From assembly GCA_050258555.1 (NCBI GenBank), contig JBLMZA010000046.1:7855-71854 (forward strand): a DNA stretch of 64,000 nucleotides, written 5' to 3'. Every line of letters begins with the position of its first letter. Position 1 is the first letter of the stretch. A model generated the notes under the pieces. That model was not told the origin of the DNA, did no database searches, and was given only the letters and a program-made list of their open reading frames with translations. Of this stretch, positions 2,979 through 30,116 are shown in pieces. Position numbers and translations under genes: made by a program. The DNA comes from Acidobacteriota bacterium. GTDB taxonomy: Bacteria > Bacteroidota > Ignavibacteria > UBA10030 > UBA8401.

Positions 2979-4709
2979 CTACTTCGTCAGCGTGATCACG
3001 TATTTGTATCTCACAATGCCGTCTTTCGGAATCGGCGGGAATGTCACTTTCACCGTTCCGCTAGAGTTGACAACCGAGCCGGCGCCGCCGGCGCCAAATG
3101 TCGCGCCGTCCGCCTGATCGGTGATCTCATAGGTGCCGTTGCCGTCGGCATCGATATCCACCTTGCCCATCTGTATGTCGCCGACCGGGAAAGGAGAAGT
3201 ATTCTGCGATGACACGGACAGGGCGGGTCTCGAGCCGTTGTTCGTAATCGTCACTTCGTATTGGATTCTCTGGCCCGGATCAGGATTGGCAAGCTTGGCG
3301 CCGTCATCGAGGTTCGTGCCCACGAGCGTGATGCTCAGGAGCGCGCCGCTGACGGTGGTAGTCAGATTGCTCAGTACGGGTGAAGGACTGCCTACCGGCG
3401 TTGCGCCGCCGGTCGACTTGCGCGTCACGGTGATCGTCTGCACGCTGACTTTTTTGTCGATCGCCCCTTCAGGAGCGGTGACTGTGAACACGATATCCTT
3501 CACGGCTCCCGGTTCCACGGTGGCGACGTCATTTTCGTCAAACGAATACGTTGCGCCGGTCAGATTGTCGCCGGTGCCGTCGGCATTGGCGATGGTAAAG
3601 CCGTCTGCCACGTTGCCCCAGTTTTTCACTTTCAGCGTGTATGATTTCGATGCACCCGGTTCGACCGTGTAATCGGTCGTCGCCGGATCGACCGCGATCG
3701 AGAATCCCTTCACGGTAATGACCGTAAACGATTTCGGCGCGTCATACGTCCATGTGCGTGAGCCGTTGCCGTCGCTGTAGACGACTTTCGACGCTGCATC
3801 GCCGACCGTGTATGTTCCCGCTGCAAGTGTCGGGCTGATCGTCGTTGTGAACGTCAGTGTCGAGCTCCCTCCGGCGGCAATCGATGCGATCGAGAACTTG
3901 GCGAGTCCCGCATCGGCTGCGGGCGTGACGGATGAGAACAGCGAACTGACATACGCCCAGTCGACGTTCAGCGACGTCGCGGCGGCGCTTCCCGTGTTGT
4001 TCACGACGATCGAATACGTGAGCGCATCGCCGGGCTTCATGCTCGAAGGATCGGCGGGCGTCGATGTCACGTTCACCGAGATCAACGGCTTTGAAATGGG
4101 AACTGTGGCTGTGAATGCATCGGATGCACCATGTTCATTCACGATATTATAAGGGACATCCGCATCGTTCATCTGGGATGTCGCCTTTACGAGAATCGTG
4201 TACGATGTTCCGTCCACGGTCGTCGTATTGTCGACGTCGAACGGGATCGTGACGCGGGCCTTCAGGCTGATGCTGCTTCCGCTGGCAAGGTTCACGGTCG
4301 AGGCAGCACTGCCGTCCGAGGCTTTCACGAAGGCAACACTCCAGCCGAGTGTTCCGCCGGTGGGACGCGTACCGCCCGTGACCGACAATGCAAAGTCATC
4401 CGTCGCGTTGCCCTGGTTCGTCACGGTGAAGGGAATTTCGATCGTCGTGCCGTCTGTTGTCGCCGAGGCGGCCAGCGCGGAGGTGATGTCGATCGCGACC
4501 TTATAGGCCACCGTGATGACCACGGGATCCGACGAGATCGACCGTGTATCCGATGTGGACGCCGCTTTATAATCGACCTTGGCGACGGTCGTGATTGTGG
4601 TCCCAGCCGGCGTACCGATCGCATACGCGGCATTGCCCGCAATCATCAGCATCATCATACCGGTAACCGCCGGGATGATGATGGTGGAGAACAAATTCCT
4701 GCGTTTCAT
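2979..4709 (-). CDS. DUF11 repeat surface protein, paralog 2. The start is placed at the internal Met that begins a signal peptide.
   Basis: MKRRNLFSTIIIPAVTGMMMLMIAGNAAYA is a signal peptide. DUF11 signatures include GDALTYSIVVNNTGSAAATSLNVDWAY, GASKSYTLKVKNWGNVADGFTIANAD and GQRIQYEVTITNNGSRPALSVSS. Its N-terminus (GTPAGTTIT..AKVDY) and its C-terminal ~55 aa (..VKVTFPPIPKDGIVRYKYVITLTK) are homologous to those of paralog 1. Confidence 0.75.
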   Translation of the reverse strand: MKRRNLFSTIIIPAVTGMMMLMIAGNAAYAIGTPAGTTITTVAKVDYKAASTSDTRSISSDPVVITVAYKVAIDITSALAASATTDGTTIEIPFTVTNQGNATDDFALSVTGGTRPTGGTLGWSVAFVKASDGSAASTVNLASGSSISLKARVTIPFDVDNTTTVDGTSYTILVKATSQMNDADVPYNIVNEHGASDAFTATVPISKPLISVNVTSTPADPSSMKPGDALTYSIVVNNTGSAAATSLNVDWAYVSSLFSSVTPAADAGLAKFSIASIAAGGSSTLTFTTTISPTLAAGTYTVGDAASKVVYSDGNGSRTWTYDAPKSFTVITVKGFSIAVDPATTDYTVEPGASKSYTLKVKNWGNVADGFTIANADGTGDNLTGATYSFDENDVATVEPGAVKDIVFTVTAPEGAIDKKVSVQTITVTRKSTGGATPVGSPSPVLSNLTTTVSGALLSITLVGTNLDDGAKLANPDPGQRIQYEVTITNNGSRPALSVSSQNTSPFPVGDIQMGKVDIDADGNGTYEITDQADGATFGAGGAGSVVNSSGTVKVTFPPIPKDGIVRYKYVITLTK

Positions 4710-5296
4710 CTGTAACTCCTGTTTTGAATTTGTTGTGTTGGGTGGTGTGAGTGATTGTTTGTTCATTCGTGTTTCTGCTTCAAACTTCTATTGCCGCATC
4801 GAAAGCGGTCTCCGCTTGTCATGGTGATTTGTTGTTCACGATATCCTCCTGATGAGTGGTTGTGTCATGTCATTAGTCAGTGAATATTTTTTTTTCAGTT
4901 TATCGCTAATATTTTTTCAACTTGTGCCGATACTCTTGTTGCGATGGATCTCGGACGGACGCAGTTCACCGGTGCATCGGGATCACCTACTCGATGTGCT
5001 TACACTTCACCCGCACGTTGAGGATTCTCTCACCAGGAGGCAAGCATCGATGATGTAATGATTGGGGGGCTTTCAGTTTTAAGGCATGCTGTAGTCAGAC
5101 GTTATCTGTATACATAAAAGGAACTTCTGCCAGAAGGCCGCGAATTAATTGTAAATACACCCAGTACACCAAGTGCAAAAATACGATTCCGTTCTTCGGG
5201 AATCAACATCTTTTTCAGTTTTACTTACAAATATAGGTAACATTATTGTTCTGATGTTGTGACACAGGTTACAATCCCAAAATATTTGTTTTTAAA

Positions 5297-5333
5297 CGAA
5301 AAAGGGCGGAAAAGCCCTCCGGCTCCTCCGCCC
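5297..5333 (-). terminator. Rho-independent terminator of the T9SS cargo gene.
   Basis: On the minus strand GGGCGGA...TCCGCCC is followed by TTTTTCG. It lies about 50 nt downstream of the stop codon at 5385. Confidence 0.55.
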
Positions 5334-5384
5334 TTCCACTGCTTTACCGCCCTCTAAAACTGATTTCCCTTCCGACGAGTTCCC

Positions 5385-7229
5385 CTACTTGACAAACTGC
5401 ATCCGCTTTACCTCCGTTCTGCCTCCGGACCTGAGCGCATAGAAGTACAATCCCGAGGGAATATCCTTCGCATCGAAGACCACCGAATGCATCATGCCCG
5501 CTTCGGCGACGCCGTCGAAGAGCGTCCGCACGTTCTGTCCGAGCGTGTTGTAGACATCGAGCACCGCCCGGCCCGTCTTCGCCACGGCGAATCGGATCGT
5601 CGTCGAGGGATTGAAGGGATTGGGATAATTCTGCGTCAGTTCATACGCCGAGAATGCGAGACCGGCCGCTTCGACTTCCCCGCTGTATTCGATGCGTCCA
5701 TCCCTGTCGATTTGCTTCAGACGATACGCCGTGATTCCGGCCGCGCCGCGATCGGCATACACATACGACTGCGGTGCATTCGTGGTGCCGGCGCCCGGCA
5801 CAAACCCGATTTTGTGCCATTGCCGCGTAGTCCCCTTTCCGACTGAACTTCGTTCGATCTCGAAACCGTAATTGTTCTTTTCCGATGCCGTCTTCCAGCG
5901 AAGCACGATCGTGCCGTTGGCGGATGCGGCGGAAAACGAAACAAGCTCGACAGGAAGCGGATCAGCAGGCGCCATGGCGATGTAGAACGTCTGCGCAAGA
6001 TCCGTTTCGCTGAGTTCCGAACGGTTCAGCACCGTATCGCTGCCGACTACGGCAAAGGGTGCGGGCGTTCCAGGAGCCGCGCCCGCCTCGAGGCCGAGCG
6101 TAAGATTGGCCGGCGGAAAAGCCGCCGCGTCCAGCCCCGATGCCTGTATGCGCAGATCGGTCAGCCCGGCATACCCGGATCCGGGAGTGATCGTCCAATT
6201 CATGGCATGCCGCTGAGTGTAGCTGAGCGCATTCTCGGTAAATGGAGAGGCAAACACCGTGGTCCCGGAGCCATCGGCATGCGTCATCGTGATCGTTCCC
6301 GATCCCGCATGCGATTTGGCGATCCATACTTTCCGGGGCATCCGCACGCCTCCCGGCAGCGGCCCCGCCGCCGCTCCCATCGGAAAATATCCCGCAAGGT
6401 CGCCGATCGAAACCGGATCGGCCCCGATCCATCTCGTCAATGTCCCGATCACAAGGCCCGGGGGCGTCGAGGCAACGCCCGTCACCCGAAACGCTCCCGG
6501 AGATGCGGCGGAGGTCCCCACCGTCAGCGTGTTGCCGCCTGTCAGAATCGTCCCGCCTTCCATCTCGAGAATGTTGACGACGAGCGACTGCGCCAGCGTG
6601 ATGACGGCCGTAGACTTCAACCGGAAATAATCCAGCGCGATCGGCGATGCCGTGCCTCCGATGGTCGAAATGCCGTCGAAGACGATGCGCGTGGTCGGTG
6701 TCGTCGCAAGCGTCGCGCCGGCATTGACGGTCAGGTCGCCGGCGATATTGAAAAATTCCGCATCCACGTTCAGCGTCCCGTCGATGACGATGTTGTGGAT
6801 GCCGAATGACTGCCCTGGTCCGACAAGCGCGGAAATGACGTGCCCCGCATTGATCGTGATATCGTCTGCCAGCGTCGGAAGGCTTTCCGTCGTGAAGGCG
6901 AGATCCGTATATGTGTCGGCCGCCGGAGCAGCCAGCAAGAGTTCCGTATCATTGAGCACCGAAGCAATCGCCCCCAGCACCGTCAGGCCGTCATCGCTCG
7001 TGATATTGGCATACCCCGGCGCGGGCAGAAAGAGCTTCGTGAATTCAGTGCCCGTCCCCGTGACGAGGGCCGATCCCTGTGTGATCGTGATGGTGCCGGC
7101 ATGTACCGCTCTCCAGACCGAAAGAGAAACTGCGCTTCCCGATGCCTTCGTGTAAAATGCATCGGCATGCGCCGCGTGCGGAAGCAGCGCGAAGCACAGC
7201 ACGGCGATTGCTGCAGTGGCAAGTTTCAT
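5385..7229 (-). CDS. Large secreted protein with a beta-helix-like N-terminal region, an FN3-like module and a T9SS (Por secretion) C-terminal sorting domain.
   Basis: The C-terminus reads ELTQNYPNPFNPSTTIRFAVAKTGRAVLDVYNTLGQNVRTLF...GLYFYALRSGGRTEVKRMQFVK, a canonical T9SS type-A CTD motif (YPNPFNPxTTI). PVELVSFSAASANGTIVLRWKTASEKNNYGFEIERS is an FN3-like module. The signal peptide MKLATAAIAVLCFALLPHAAHA starts at 7229. The track's M at 7286 is a GTG codon. Confidence 0.8.
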   Translation of the reverse strand: MKLATAAIAVLCFALLPHAAHADAFYTKASGSAVSLSVWRAVHAGTITITQGSALVTGTGTEFTKLFLPAPGYANITSDDGLTVLGAIASVLNDTELLLAAPAADTYTDLAFTTESLPTLADDITINAGHVISALVGPGQSFGIHNIVIDGTLNVDAEFFNIAGDLTVNAGATLATTPTTRIVFDGISTIGGTASPIALDYFRLKSTAVITLAQSLVVNILEMEGGTILTGGNTLTVGTSAASPGAFRVTGVASTPPGLVIGTLTRWIGADPVSIGDLAGYFPMGAAAGPLPGGVRMPRKVWIAKSHAGSGTITMTHADGSGTTVFASPFTENALSYTQRHAMNWTITPGSGYAGLTDLRIQASGLDAAAFPPANLTLGLEAGAAPGTPAPFAVVGSDTVLNRSELSETDLAQTFYIAMAPADPLPVELVSFSAASANGTIVLRWKTASEKNNYGFEIERSSVGKGTTRQWHKIGFVPGAGTTNAPQSYVYADRGAAGITAYRLKQIDRDGRIEYSGEVEAAGLAFSAYELTQNYPNPFNPSTTIRFAVAKTGRAVLDVYNTLGQNVRTLFDGVAEAGMMHSVVFDAKDIPSGLYFYALRSGGRTEVKRMQFVK

Positions 7230-7356
7230 TGATCTCTCCATGAATGAACGCTCCAGATTGATGTGATTCTCCCCGCACGGTGTCACCCTCTCCCTGTGAA
7301 TATGTTTTCCCTGTTTCCTTGTGGGGAAATATCACAAAAGAGGCTTCATGATGAAA

Positions 7357-7392
7357 GTTAGAATGTTCTAATCCATGATTAGAATGTTCTAA
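7357..7392. promoter_or_regulatory. Two copies of the 15 bp palindromic operator TTAGAATGTTCTAAT, spaced 21 bp start-to-start, upstream of the T9SS cargo gene.
   Basis: The element is at 7357-7371 and at 7378-7392. The arms are TTAGAA / TTCTAA (6-2-6). Both copies lie about 130-165 nt upstream of the ATG at 7229. Confidence 0.5.
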
Positions 7393-7414
7393 TGCCAGGA
7401 AGGAATGGACGGGA

Positions 7415-8575
7415 TCAGGATGCGGCGAACTCGGCAGGAAGCGATTCGGAGAGTCCGAAGTAGTGAAGGATGATCTGGACGATGCGCGCCGATGCGCATC
7501 CGTCGCCGTACGGATTCACGCCTGTTGACATGGCGCGGTAGGCGTCGCCGCTATCGAGCAGTTCGCGGGCCGCCGAGACGATCGCCGCTTCATCGAGGCC
7601 GACGAGTCTCACGCATCCGGCGGCGACCGCTTCGGGACGCTCGGTCACCGTGCGCAGCACGAGCACCGGCTTGCCGAGCGACGGGGCTTCTTCCTGGATG
7701 CCGCCCGAATCCGTGATGATGAAGAACGACGCTGCCATCAGGTTCACAAAGTCGGCATAGGCGAGCGGTTCACACAGCAGAATATTCTTGACGCCGTTCA
7801 GCTCAAGTCGCAGCAGCGAACGGACTTCCGGATTTCGATGCATGGGCAGCACGAATGCCGTTTCGGGAGATTCGAGCGCAAGCCGCCGCAGCGCGCAGGC
7901 GGCGGCACGCATGGGCGCTCCCCAGTTTTCCCGGCGGTGCATGGTCGCCAGGATGATCTTTTTTCCGGAGCGGACGAGCGGCCGGAGCCTCGGCTCGCTG
8001 AACCGGTAGGCCGGACGGACCGTCGCCCTGAGCGCATCGATGACCGTATTGCCGGTGATGAAGATCTTCTTCGCATCGACGCCTTCGCGCACGAGCGCCG
8101 TGCGCGCCGTCTGTGTGGGCGCAAAATGCAGCGCCGCAATCGAGGAGGTTAGGCGCCGGTTCATCTCTTCCGGAAACGGATTCCCTACATCGTCGGTGCG
8201 CAGCCCGGCTTCGATGTGTCCGACCGGAATGCGCCGATAGAAGGCCGCCAGTGCCGCGGTGAACGTCGTCGTCGTGTCGCCCTGCACCAGCACCATATCC
8301 GGCTCCACGGCGCTCAGAAGCGCATCGAGCGGACGAAGCGCCCGCGCGGTGATCTGGGCGAGCGACTGGCGCGTGCGCATGATGTTCAGATCATAGCGGG
8401 GACGTATGCCGAAGCTCTTCAGCACCTGGTCGAGCATTTCACGATGCTGCGCCGTCGCGATGGGAACGACCGAAAAGGCATTGCGCTCGCGGGCGAGCGC
8501 TTTCAGGACGGGCGCGCTTTTGATCGCATCGGGACGTGTTCCGAAGACGACCGCAATGGTCTTTTTTCGTTTCAT
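7415..8575 (-). CDS. wecB: UDP-N-acetylglucosamine 2-epimerase (non-hydrolysing).
   Basis: MKRKKTIAVVFGTRPDAIKSAPV... and the full length match the WecB/MnaA fold. Motifs include HVEAGLRT, GNTVIDAL and ITDSGGIQEEAPSLGKPVLVLR. Confidence 0.85.
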   Translation of the reverse strand: MKRKKTIAVVFGTRPDAIKSAPVLKALARERNAFSVVPIATAQHREMLDQVLKSFGIRPRYDLNIMRTRQSLAQITARALRPLDALLSAVEPDMVLVQGDTTTTFTAALAAFYRRIPVGHIEAGLRTDDVGNPFPEEMNRRLTSSIAALHFAPTQTARTALVREGVDAKKIFITGNTVIDALRATVRPAYRFSEPRLRPLVRSGKKIILATMHRRENWGAPMRAAACALRRLALESPETAFVLPMHRNPEVRSLLRLELNGVKNILLCEPLAYADFVNLMAASFFIITDSGGIQEEAPSLGKPVLVLRTVTERPEAVAAGCVRLVGLDEAAIVSAARELLDSGDAYRAMSTGVNPYGDGCASARIVQIILHYFGLSESLPAEFAAS

Positions 8576-8716
8576 GAAAATGCTCTGTCTGGTGAGACGG
8601 AATGTGAACCGCGCTGTAATATATAAAAAATATCTTCAAAGTTGCGGTGATTTTTTTGTATATTTTATCCGTTCGAACATTCTCATCTACTTCCCCACGA
8701 ACATAACGGAGACACT

Positions 8717-9529
8717 ATGCGCGTCATCATACAACCGAATTATGAACTTGTGAGCAAATGGACCGCGGCCCACGTGGTACGGTCGATCAACGATTTCAAG
8801 CCGACGCCGCGCAAGCCCTACGTGCTCGGTCTGCCCACAGGCTCCTCCCCGCTCGGCACATACCAGGAGCTCATCCGGCTGCACAAGAAGGGCGTCGTGT
8901 CCTTCAAAAACGTGATCACATTCAACATGGATGAATACGTCGGACTGCCCGAGAAGCATCCCGAGAGCTACCATTCGTTCATGTGGAATAATTTCTTCCG
9001 ACACATCGACATCAGGAAGGAAAACGTCAACATCCTGAACGGCAACGCGAAGGACGTCGAGAAGGAATGCGCCCAGTATGAAGCGAAGATCAGGAAGGCC
9101 GGCGGCATACAGCTCTTCCTCGGCGGCATCGGCCCCGACGGCCACATCGCCTTCAACGAACCCGGCTCGTCGCTCTCCTCGCGCACGCGCGTCAAGACGC
9201 TGACCTACGACACGATCCTTGCCAATTCCCGCTTCTTCGACAACGATGTGACGAAGGTCCCGAAGACAGCGCTCACGGTCGGCGTGGCGACGATCCTCGA
9301 TGCGAAGGAAGTCCTGATCATCATTAACGGACATAAGAAGGCCCGCGCTCTTTCGCATGTGGTGGAAGACGGCGTGAACCATATGTGGACCGTCAGCGCG
9401 CTGCAATTGCATCCGAAGGGCATCATCGTGTGCGATGATGAAGCAACGGATGAGCTCAAAGTCGGAACCGTCCGTTATTTCAAGGACATCGAGTCGGCAA
9501 ATCTCGATCCCGAACGGCTGCTGGCGTAA
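8717..9529 (+). CDS. nagB: Glucosamine-6-phosphate deaminase.
   Basis: [15 protein letters not shown]..., [19 protein letters not shown] and [18 protein letters not shown] are canonical NagB motifs. Confidence 0.9.
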
Positions 9530-27430: not shown

Positions 27431-28801
<1,371 letters not shown>

Positions 28802-28848
28802 GATGTGTACGTCCCGATCCTCTTCGGTGCGACAATGTGAGGCGGGCG

Positions 28849-29220
28849 CTATTCTGCGGAAAGAACTCGTTCGATCGTCGTCAGTAAATCGACCAGATCG
28901 TACGGCTTGCTGACAAAGTCTTCGGCACCGAGCTTTTTCGACTCAATGGCATTCTTCAAATCGGCAAATCCCGTCAGCATGATCACCTTCGTGCTCGGAT
29001 AGCGCTGTTTGATGAAGCGCAGGACCTCGAAACCGTCGACGCGCGGCATCTTGATGTCGAGCAGCACCAGATCGAAGGATTTCTGCTGCAACACAGCAAT
29101 TGCGTCGTCTCCATCGGCCGCGGTATCGACTGTGTACCCTTCGCTCAGCAATTCAGTGCTCAGGACGCTTCGCAGCGCATCCTCGTCGTCGACAACCAGG
29201 ACAGTGAAATTTTGTGCCAT
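28849..29220 (-). CDS. Stand-alone CheY-like response-regulator receiver domain.
   Basis: It is 123 aa, with VLVVDDE, the phospho-Asp in LVLLDIKMP, and T/K motifs IMLTG...KP. Confidence 0.8.
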   Translation of the reverse strand: MAQNFTVLVVDDEDALRSVLSTELLSEGYTVDTAADGDDAIAVLQQKSFDLVLLDIKMPRVDGFEVLRFIKQRYPSTKVIMLTGFADLKNAIESKKLGAEDFVSKPYDLVDLLTTIERVLSAE

Positions 29221-29471
29221 TCAGTTTCCTCGTGTGAAGTGTGTAGATAGCTGGGGACAGCCAGGTGTCATGGCTCTAAAGTATAGGCAAACATCGCGTA
29301 AGAATCAATATGTTTTTTCCGGAACATCAACTTTTTCCCGGATCCGTGGGCACTCCGGCCGAGCCGGCACTTGCAATCGTGGCAAACAAATCGTACGTTT
29401 AATGAACTTTCACCCGCGCTCACGGCATGAATGCCGCAGGCGCTTCATTCGGAGTCCAAGCGCACTTGATT

Positions 29472-30116
29472 ATGATCGAATCGATGATCCATGTCCTCAT
29501 TGTAGACGATGATGTCTCGTATACGAAAATCGTGCAGCAGACGCTCACCTCGTTCGCTGCCGACCAGTTCACCGTGACCGCCGCACACACCGGCGCGGAC
29601 GGCATAGCGGCGCTCAAGGCCGACGGGAGCATCGATATCGTCCTGCTCGACTATTTTCTCGGCGGCACGAACGGACTGGACGTGGCCAAGGAGATCCGCT
29701 CGCTCGGCATTGAAACGCCCATCGTGTTCGTCACATGGAACAAAGACTTCGAGCTTGCGGTCGAAGGCATCCAGCTCGGGGTCGAAGATTATCTCGTCAA
29801 GGATGAGATCGCCACCTCCATCCTTCCCAGCACGATCATCAACTCGCTTCAGCGTTCGGCGCTGAAGTCCAGGATCGCCGCAGAGCGCAAGCAGGCGGCC
29901 CTGGTCCGCAAGCGTGCCGAAGCGATCAAGGAACTGGTGATCACCGTCTGCCATGAATTCAACAATCCGCTTGCCGCGATCAAGATCAGCTCCGAAATCA
30001 TCTCGCGCAGCGTCAGCGCGCCGCATGACCGCGTGCTCATGGAAAATCTGAACAAGCAGAACCGCACGATCGAGAAAGAGATCATGAAGCTGCGGGACAT
30101 CTCGATTACACCCTGA
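29472..30116 (+). CDS. Receiver domain fused to a HisKA-like dimerisation/phosphoacceptor domain, with no HATPase_c domain.
   Basis: The REC part reads IHVLIVDDD...IVLLDYFLGGTNGLD...VFVTW. It is followed by VITVCHEFNNPLAAIKISSEII, an H-box-like helix, and the protein then ends. The start at MIESM is tentative. Confidence 0.55.
   Translation: MIESMIHVLIVDDDVSYTKIVQQTLTSFAADQFTVTAAHTGADGIAALKADGSIDIVLLDYFLGGTNGLDVAKEIRSLGIETPIVFVTWNKDFELAVEGIQLGVEDYLVKDEIATSILPSTIINSLQRSALKSRIAAERKQAALVRKRAEAIKELVITVCHEFNNPLAAIKISSEIISRSVSAPHDRVLMENLNKQNRTIEKEIMKLRDISITP

Follow-up and report, generated by a model that had tools for sequence, protein, structure and literature searches.

Activators that work next to a -35 element include PhoB at its pho boxes, CRP and FNR at their class II sites, and lambda cI at PRM. 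OmpR-family proteins more often bind direct repeats. In Porphyromonas gingivalis, the PorXY-SigP pathway acts on the T9SS machinery genes; PorX has no classical DNA-binding domain and works through an ECF sigma factor. In mycobacteria, the TetR-family protein KstR, a repressor of lipid catabolism, has the operator TnnAACnnGTTnnA, and sites of the NarL family, such as the RcsB box, resemble a 7-2-7 layout with an AGAAnnTTCT core. To our knowledge, almost nothing is known of the transcriptional control of T9SS cargo outside Porphyromonas and Flavobacterium, and nothing for uncultured Ignavibacteria-like lineages. The closest described relatives of the element presented here are the boxes of CusR, HprR, CopR and CzcR. 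The YedW/HprR box of E. coli, CATTACAAAATTGTAATG (ATTACAAAATTGTAAT), reads ATTACAA-AA-TTGTAAT (bioRxiv 10.1101/2021.09.09.459708), and the published CusR box of the same species, AAAATGACAAnnTTGTCATTTT (TGACAAnnTTGTCA), reads ATGACAA-nn-TTGTCAT. In Pseudomonas, the CusR/CopR/CzcR box is ATTACATnnATGTAAT, or ATTACAT-nn-ATGTAAT; these boxes activate from intergenic sites, and cusRS autoregulates (bioRxiv 10.1101/2023.09.26.559466).

The window, that is, the whole 64-kb stretch of DNA analysed here, carries two plus-strand copies of the 15-mer TTAGAATGTTCTAAT, at 7358-7372 and 7379-7393, with a start-to-start phase of exactly 21 bp. Both copies are 6-2-6 palindromes, TTAGAA-TG-TTCTAA. The first-pass annotation had reported these tandem identical palindromes at their 21-bp phase, and the pair is indeed there, although its true location (7358-7393) is shifted right by one base from the 7357-7392 then given. 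The distance of 130-165 nt upstream of the ATG was also well judged, with the box cores measured at -163 to -129 from the start codon (ATG at 7229, minus strand) of a T9SS cargo gene. On the coding (minus) strand the order is the wecB stop codon TGA, 21 nt, the distal copy ATTAGAACATTCTAAT, CATGG, the proximal copy ATTAGAACATTCTAAC and TTTC. The features of the region are as follows:

7415..8575, minus strand: wecB, UDP-GlcNAc 2-epimerase (Epimerase_2, E 2.6e-115), the upstream neighbour, with its stop codon at 7415-7417; it is outside the element
7378..7393 (core 7379-7392), minus strand: distal box ATTAGAACATTCTAAT, a perfect 7-2-7 palindrome, centred at about -66.5 from the predicted start
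7357..7372 (core 7358-7371), minus strand: proximal box ATTAGAACATTCTAAC, centred at about -45.5 from the predicted start
7326..7331, minus strand: predicted -10-like hexamer TATTTC, separated by exactly 25 nt from the C immediately downstream of the proximal box
7230..7319, minus strand: predicted 5' UTR of ~90 nt, placed from the predicted -10, with a GGAG ribosome-binding site at 7236-7239
5385..7229, minus strand: target gene, T9SS cargo, ATG at 7229, 614 aa, Por_Secre_tail at residues 535-609

Chance is excluded as the source of the pair, since the perfect TTAGAANNTTCTAA was observed 2 times against 0.03 expected per window in 30 dinucleotide-preserving shuffles, and the whole 64-kb window holds no further copy with one mismatch or fewer. 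A plus-strand box with 2 mismatches, TTCGAACATTCTCA, lies at 8672-8685, between wecB and a divergent Glucosamine_iso-family gene (8717-9529, plus strand), and the equivalent spot in locus L005 retains only TTTCGAAC. It was rejected as a third box because 2-mismatch matches occur at chance level, with 0.6 expected per window. The cargo protein itself is identical to NCBI MGE5313944.1. It had been called a T9SS-secreted beta-helix protein; the Por_Secre_tail bears out the secretion signal, but the beta-helix is unconfirmed, as Pfam returns the C-terminal sorting domain only. Between the cargo gene and a CARDB/DUF11 secreted-protein gene (2979-4766, minus strand) there is a stretch of 618 nt (4767-5384) without an ORF of at least 150 aa, and the GC content of the bin 4001-6000 is 53% compared to ~59% elsewhere in the window.

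The likeness to the CusR, HprR, CopR and CzcR boxes is in both layout and setting. The window box, ATTAGAA-nn-TTCTAAT, is a 7-2-7 inverted repeat with the same ATTA...TAAT outer bases, and at other loci described below an intergenic box likewise stands beside a two-component operon. The box-linked regulators tested there score best, though below the cutoff, against TIGR01387, the heavy-metal response-regulator subfamily (CztR/SilR/CopR) of those published boxes. There are differences as well. The inner bases are GAA/TTC here, whereas they are CAA/TTG or CAT/ATG there, and each half-site of the consensus ATTAGAAnnTTCTAAT differs at one base pair from that of the HprR box. Unlike those boxes, the ones found here are paired in tandem at 20-21 bp; in the window lineage, PAS or hybrid kinases take the place of periplasmic metal sensors; and the targets are not metal efflux genes, the sole exception being a CusB/HlyD-like gene at locus L039.

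The remaining systems resemble the element in part. As in PorXY-SigP, two-component signalling appears to be placed over T9SS-related genes in the same broad phylum, but here the candidate regulator is a winged-helix protein with a palindromic box and the target is a cargo gene. A receiver protein encoded behind the boxes at other loci matches the PorX model over the receiver domain only, with 64 bits against a cutoff of 300. The KstR operator is likewise a TAGAAC...GTTCTA-like palindrome with a 2-nt centre; its half-sites are each one base longer, giving a 14-bp rather than a 12-bp core, the phylum differs, and no TetR gene lies near any box locus here. Similar to the activators that work next to a -35 element, the site lies against a weak -35, or stands in for it, with constant spacing to the -10 and with tandem sites on one face, although the predicted centre is at -43.5 to -45.5 and not at -41.5.

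The boxes are conserved at orthologous cargo genes. There are two full-length relatives of the cargo protein, P0002 (54% identity) and P0003 (41% identity). Three perfect boxes, with spacings of 31 and 21 bp, lie upstream of the former (locus L005), and one perfect box lies upstream of the latter (L006). These contigs share the downstream synteny of the window, a CARDB/DUF11-type protein followed by large secreted proteins; wecB is missing at the orthologous position in L005, and the boxes are nonetheless present. In a three-way alignment of the orthologous upstream regions, the longest invariant block is TTAGAA..TTCTAACTTT, and the only invariant blocks of appreciable length are the box plus CTTT and then ATATT 24 nt downstream. 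This pattern of conservation reads as a classical phylogenetic footprint, and the palindromes are very likely a functional, conserved factor-binding element. The counterpart of the distal box, as a second or third box, is present in L005, L024 and L066.

To find the box elsewhere, the tandem pattern was scanned over one genome per species, plus JGI metagenomes. Among unrelated matches, the scans recovered one coherent class of two boxes at 20-bp phase in Bacteroidota/Ignavibacteriae MAGs and in Mucilaginibacter. The metagenomes added few useful loci and mostly returned Sphingobacteriia copies or unrelated repeat arrays. The box consensus is ATTAGAAnnTTCTAAT, in tandem at 20-21 bp, and over about 19 promoters it can be written as aTTAGAAnnTTCTAAt, a 7-2-7 inverted repeat with TTA/TAA outer bases. 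Three kinds of target follow the boxes: a receiver-domain gene, polysaccharide or secreted-protein operons, and, in Sphingobacteriia, an OmpR-type response regulator-histidine kinase operon. For example, the Pfam content of the flanking genes places the boxes directly upstream of a receiver-domain protein of ~250 aa in L016, L023, L027 and L033, and directly upstream of an OmpR-type regulator and histidine-kinase operon in L008 and its relatives L010, L038, L056, L058 and L064. In L024, they precede another T9SS cargo gene at only 57 nt from the ATG. Since L024 and L027 come from the same MAG, one genome carries both kinds of target, cargo and receiver gene.

A second set of loci, selected by protein homology and covering about 127 kb, gave a consistent picture. 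All 11 of its perfect boxes are intergenic, 60-220 nt upstream of a start codon, and coding matches were of the 2-mismatch kind only. The first-pass annotation had argued that an operator should recur in the orthologous intergenic region of relatives and should not fall at random or inside genes; the box is present in that region, and the placement of the perfect copies in these loci agrees. An extra box pair in L071 precedes an operon of GT4/CoA_binding_3, GH18, GH18 and cargo genes, and L074 has a degenerate box pair in its regulator cluster and a perfect box before a 1029-aa secreted-protein gene. In L073, where a homologue of the receiver protein has a different context, there is no box and no OmpR regulator nearby.

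Further occurrences of the pattern were noted in passing. In the Chitinophagales MAG locus L030 (6138-6175), tandem boxes at a 24-bp phase lie upstream of a T9SS cargo gene, and in the Bacteroidales MAG locus L039 (2581-2615), tandem boxes lie upstream of the CusB/HlyD-like membrane-fusion gene, with an OmpR-type regulator 1.5 kb away. Many matches in other phyla were set aside as unrelated, including a coding repeat in a Chlamydiae MAG, arrays from the termite gut, the TTAGAACGTTCTAA sites of Betaproteobacteria and CI-type operators of Firmicutes. The termite-gut Bacteroidetes MAG Th196P3bin14 carries arrays of a ~61-bp unit, each unit having two TTAGAAATTTCTAA boxes and GAACAGGTTTTTC, at L014, L015, L017, L035, L044, L049-L051, L054, L055 and L062; this is a dispersed repeat containing the same palindrome. 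In the Betaproteobacteria Trinickia and Janthinobacterium, pairs of the perfect palindrome TTAGAACGTTCTAA occur at L025 (6520-6555), L028 (3788-3824) and L037 (7319-7363), with the Trinickia pairs (L025, L028) upstream of ExbB and TonB-dependent receptor genes, and they belong to a different regulon from that of the window box. In Firmicutes MAGs (L011, 5396-5439; L031, 1017-1060), tandem look-alikes straddle a perfect TTGACA-17-TATAAT by CI/Xre or S24-HTH repressor genes and are probably prophage immunity operators.

The window has no regulator gene next to the pair. The first-pass annotation had expected the factor to be encoded elsewhere, and a candidate was located on another contig of the same MAG. 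The trail runs through P0064. Homologous to the receiver protein (63% identity), it is NCBI MGE5314926.1 of an 'Acidobacteriota bacterium' MAG and is encoded on L066. Among Logan contigs, those of L066 and of the window come from the same sequencing runs, SRR24085924 and SRR24085902, and the accession MGE5314926.1 is about 1,000 from that of the cargo protein, MGE5313944.1; L066 is therefore very probably part of the window's own genome. It carries two perfect boxes, at 4793 and 4813 (20-bp phase), upstream of the receiver-domain gene, and its truncated first ORF matches the DNA-binding domain of L071's OmpR-type regulator at 97.5% identity. The full-length OmpR-type regulator, P0175 or MGE5314929.1 (232 aa, 95% identical to the L071 regulator), is on the same 109-kb contig as MGE5314926.1, three accession numbers or genes away, with PAS-domain and hybrid histidine kinases as neighbours. 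This protein, on a contig other than that of the window, would be the candidate regulator of the window boxes. The source MAG has the NCBI label 'Acidobacteriota bacterium', yet it encodes T9SS cargo and its closest protein relatives (95-96% for the regulator) are in MAGs labelled Bacteroidota or Ignavibacteriae; the label is probably wrong.

The same neighbourhood recurs. In L071 and L075, the order is OmpR regulator, PAS/hybrid kinases, boxes, receiver gene and receiver-less sigma54 activator, and beyond the activator there are a convergent T9SS cargo gene and GH18 genes. L066 repeats this order from the truncated regulator ORF onward, and L074 is a variant cluster. An OmpR-family regulator gene lies within a few kb of boxes at seven loci of the window lineage, including L066, L071, L074, L075, L076 and L077. 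The last two (GC 41% and 47%) have boxes just after the response regulator-kinase operon and before receiver-domain genes, and were selected solely by homology to the OmpR regulator (P0214 and P0191, 69-70% identity), independently of the box. In Mucilaginibacter and other Sphingobacteriia, tandem boxes lie directly upstream of the OmpR-type regulator-kinase operon, an arrangement that would be expected under autoregulation. The OmpR-family regulator is the sole DNA-binding neighbour that recurs in both the window lineage and the Sphingobacteriia.

The box-linked regulators have TIGR01387 as their best NCBIfam match in all five tested, with the CusR and HprR equivalogs close behind. The TIGR01387 scores are 220-249 bits against a trusted cutoff of 279.2, and all equivalog scores are below their curated cutoffs, so these are not bona fide metal regulators. 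Nor does a role in metal or oxidant response fit the genes around them: the one kinase whose best match is a heavy-metal family stays below the curated cutoff, the best heavy-metal histidine kinase score being 163 against a cutoff of 293; the window lineage has kinases of PAS or hybrid type; and the boxes stand in front of T9SS cargo, a receiver-domain gene or GT4/GH18/polysaccharide genes. With neither metal-sensing kinases nor metal genes as targets, the element is CusR/HprR-like without being that of a metal-resistance system.

The receiver protein was itself considered as the DNA binder and rejected; its C-terminus is helical, it has no DNA-binding domain, and its resemblance to HisKA is non-significant (E 0.39). 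The receiver-less sigma54 activator comes right after this box-controlled receiver-only gene in L066 (5729-6724), L071 (10782-11789) and L075 (10777-11820), and the two genes look like an NtrC-type regulator split into two polypeptides. The window also has a box-free signalling cluster at 27431-30116. It comprises an NtrC-type sigma54 activator with REC, AAA+ and HTH_8 domains (27431-28801, minus strand), a stand-alone receiver at about 28861-29220 (minus strand), and a paralogue of the box-controlled receiver protein (29427-30116, plus strand) that has a clear REC+HisKA, no ATPase domain and the H-box CHEFNNPLAAI.

The position of the box relative to the promoter falls into two spacing classes. 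At 12 promoters, those of receiver genes, a GT4 operon and a secreted protein, the sequence reads box, 1 base, TTGnnn, 17 nt, TAnnnT. Examples are TTCTAA-T-TTGCCT-17-TATCAT in L066, TTGCTC-17-TATTAT in L023 and TTGATT-17-TAGAAT in L077. These non-cargo promoters appear to be of sigma70 type, with the box abutting the -35 and centred at about -43.5. In the cargo class (the window, L005, L006 and L024), the box is followed by C, 25 nt and TAnnTn, with a poor -35 between; the same 25-nt spacing that leads to TATTTC in the window reaches TATTTT in L005, TATTAT in L006 and TACTTA in L024, the distance from the -10 to the ATG is similar in the cargo orthologues, and the invariant ATATT of the three-way alignment also speaks for a -10 here. 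No good -35 is present at 7332-7356, between the proximal box and the -10-like hexamer, and a promoter scan of the window region found no consensus sigma70 promoter. Transcription would start near 7319.

A weak -35 combined with a factor site at constant spacing is the mark of a promoter that depends on an activator. The receiver-gene promoters have a fair -35 and -10 and might need no activator. Inside their 17-nt spacer, there is a conserved CGAATCTC-like motif (L066, 4835-4850; the same in L071, L075, L023 and L027), which could be a second regulatory site or mere orthology.

The boxes are thus real, conserved and intergenic, they stand at fixed distances from promoter-like elements, and they are repeatedly linked to a regulator. 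A CusR-like regulator of the OmpR family that activates has, in our judgement, a slightly better than even chance of being the factor; the link between regulator and box is drawn from gene neighbourhood and from analogy. One could instead consider an unlinked dimeric factor, either a repressor of the TetR, MarR, Xre or LexA kind, types that the first-pass annotation had named, or a LuxR/NarL-type protein, with the two-component cluster merely another of its targets. Palindromic sites of 14-16 bp are used by many families, and the tandem look-alikes of Firmicutes, which overlap the -35 and -10, lie beside CI/Xre and S24-HTH repressor genes, so the DNA sequence alone does not fix the family of the factor. 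Also, the OmpR regulator of the window lineage is not itself under box control: in the homology-selected loci scanned, its own promoter has no box. However, no TetR, MarR, Xre, LexA or LuxR gene recurs by the boxes in the annotated Bacteroidota-type loci, no gene of the four types first proposed accompanies the box in any Bacteroidota-type locus examined, and the OmpR-type regulator remains the sole recurrent DNA-binding neighbour even in loci picked independently of the box. Repressor sites usually differ in position from promoter to promoter, but the box keeps a constant place relative to the -35; this argues for activation and against a repressor. In the window and the Bacteroidota-type loci, the boxes lie upstream of the -35 without overlap, and no repressor gene flanks them. 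The likeness to a Cheo-box, which had also been remarked on, or to another LexA operator is not supported, given that the core is GAA-N2-TTC and not GAAC-N4-GTTC and that no SOS gene lies downstream at about 19 box promoters. An unlinked factor is accordingly judged unlikely, though it keeps appreciable weight.

The receiver-less sigma54 activator, an AAA+ protein with a Fis-type HTH_8 domain, could also bind the boxes. At the cargo gene they would then serve as an enhancer (UAS), and at the activator's own operon they would provide feedback. Enhancer-binding proteins do bind tandem palindromes, 129-163 nt before the cargo ATG is a typical UAS distance, a GG-N10-GC element (GGGTGACACCGTGC) lies about 45 nt before that ATG, and the activator gene is co-transcribed with a box-controlled gene in L066, L071 and L075, where its products are 77% identical to one another. 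The GG-N10-GC element is single in the window, however, and is not conserved in L005, L006 or L024; the boxes of L024 are only 57 nt from the ATG; the 12 other box promoters have the box-abutting TTG-17-TAnnnT of sigma70 architecture; and L074, L076, L077 and all box-bearing Sphingobacteriia loci have no gene for the activator, which makes this explanation improbable. Least probable is an element acting in RNA, in which a hairpin formed between the two copies would end or process transcripts of wecB. The copies do lie directly after the wecB stop codon, and the minus-strand hairpin between them has a centroid energy of -10.7 kcal/mol (z = -2.2 vs shuffles), but the stem is AU-rich, is interrupted by a 2x2 internal loop and lacks a U tract, the terminator scan returned nothing at this position, the central NN shows no compensatory change between paired copies, L006 has a single box, L005 keeps its boxes without wecB, and there is no match to an Rfam family.

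Under the preferred reading, activation by a CusR-like regulator of the OmpR family, the phosphorylated regulator would bind as one dimer per 7-2-7 box, and the 21-bp phase would set both dimers on the same face of the DNA. The same-face geometry had been pointed out in the first-pass annotation and is consistent with two dimers. The proximal dimer would sit just upstream of a core promoter with the -10-like TATTTC and a poor -35, where it could recruit or stabilise RNA polymerase and so turn on transcription of the T9SS cargo gene and, probably, of the secreted-protein genes that follow it. The same regulator would also drive the receiver-domain gene, which in the window lineage is followed by the receiver-less sigma54 activator, as well as the cell-surface polysaccharide or secreted-protein operons. 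On the whole, the earlier picture of an operator for a distant regulator is supported, and the identity of that regulator as a TetR, MarR, Xre or LexA type is not.

A search of the literature for the half-sites and for T9SS regulators found no description of the motif or its regulon. The boxes point to an undescribed regulon in Bacteroidota-type bacteria, although its mechanism would be an ordinary one, a response-regulator site next to a core promoter. The gains are a searchable 16-bp box and a named candidate regulator for T9SS cargo and cell-surface genes. Direct tests of the regulon are possible in Mucilaginibacter sp. L196 and E4BP6, which carry the boxes and can be cultured, and the change of a single base pair in each half-site, CAA to GAA, gives the CusR/HprR clade a natural series for the study of specificity. 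More tentatively, and with less than an even chance, a CusR/CopR-like branch in the broad Bacteroidota may have been turned from a metal-sensing role to cell-surface control via ATTAGAAnnTTCTAAT. If true, this branch would span Ignavibacteria-like lineages, Sphingobacteriia and Chitinophagales, and would switch on T9SS cargo and polysaccharide and GH18 operons through ATTAGAAnnTTCTAAT, along with a downstream relay made of the receiver-domain protein and, in some lineages, the receiver-less sigma54 activator. This would then be the first case, outside the PorXY-SigP paradigm, in which a cis-regulatory code for the expression of T9SS cargo has been defined.
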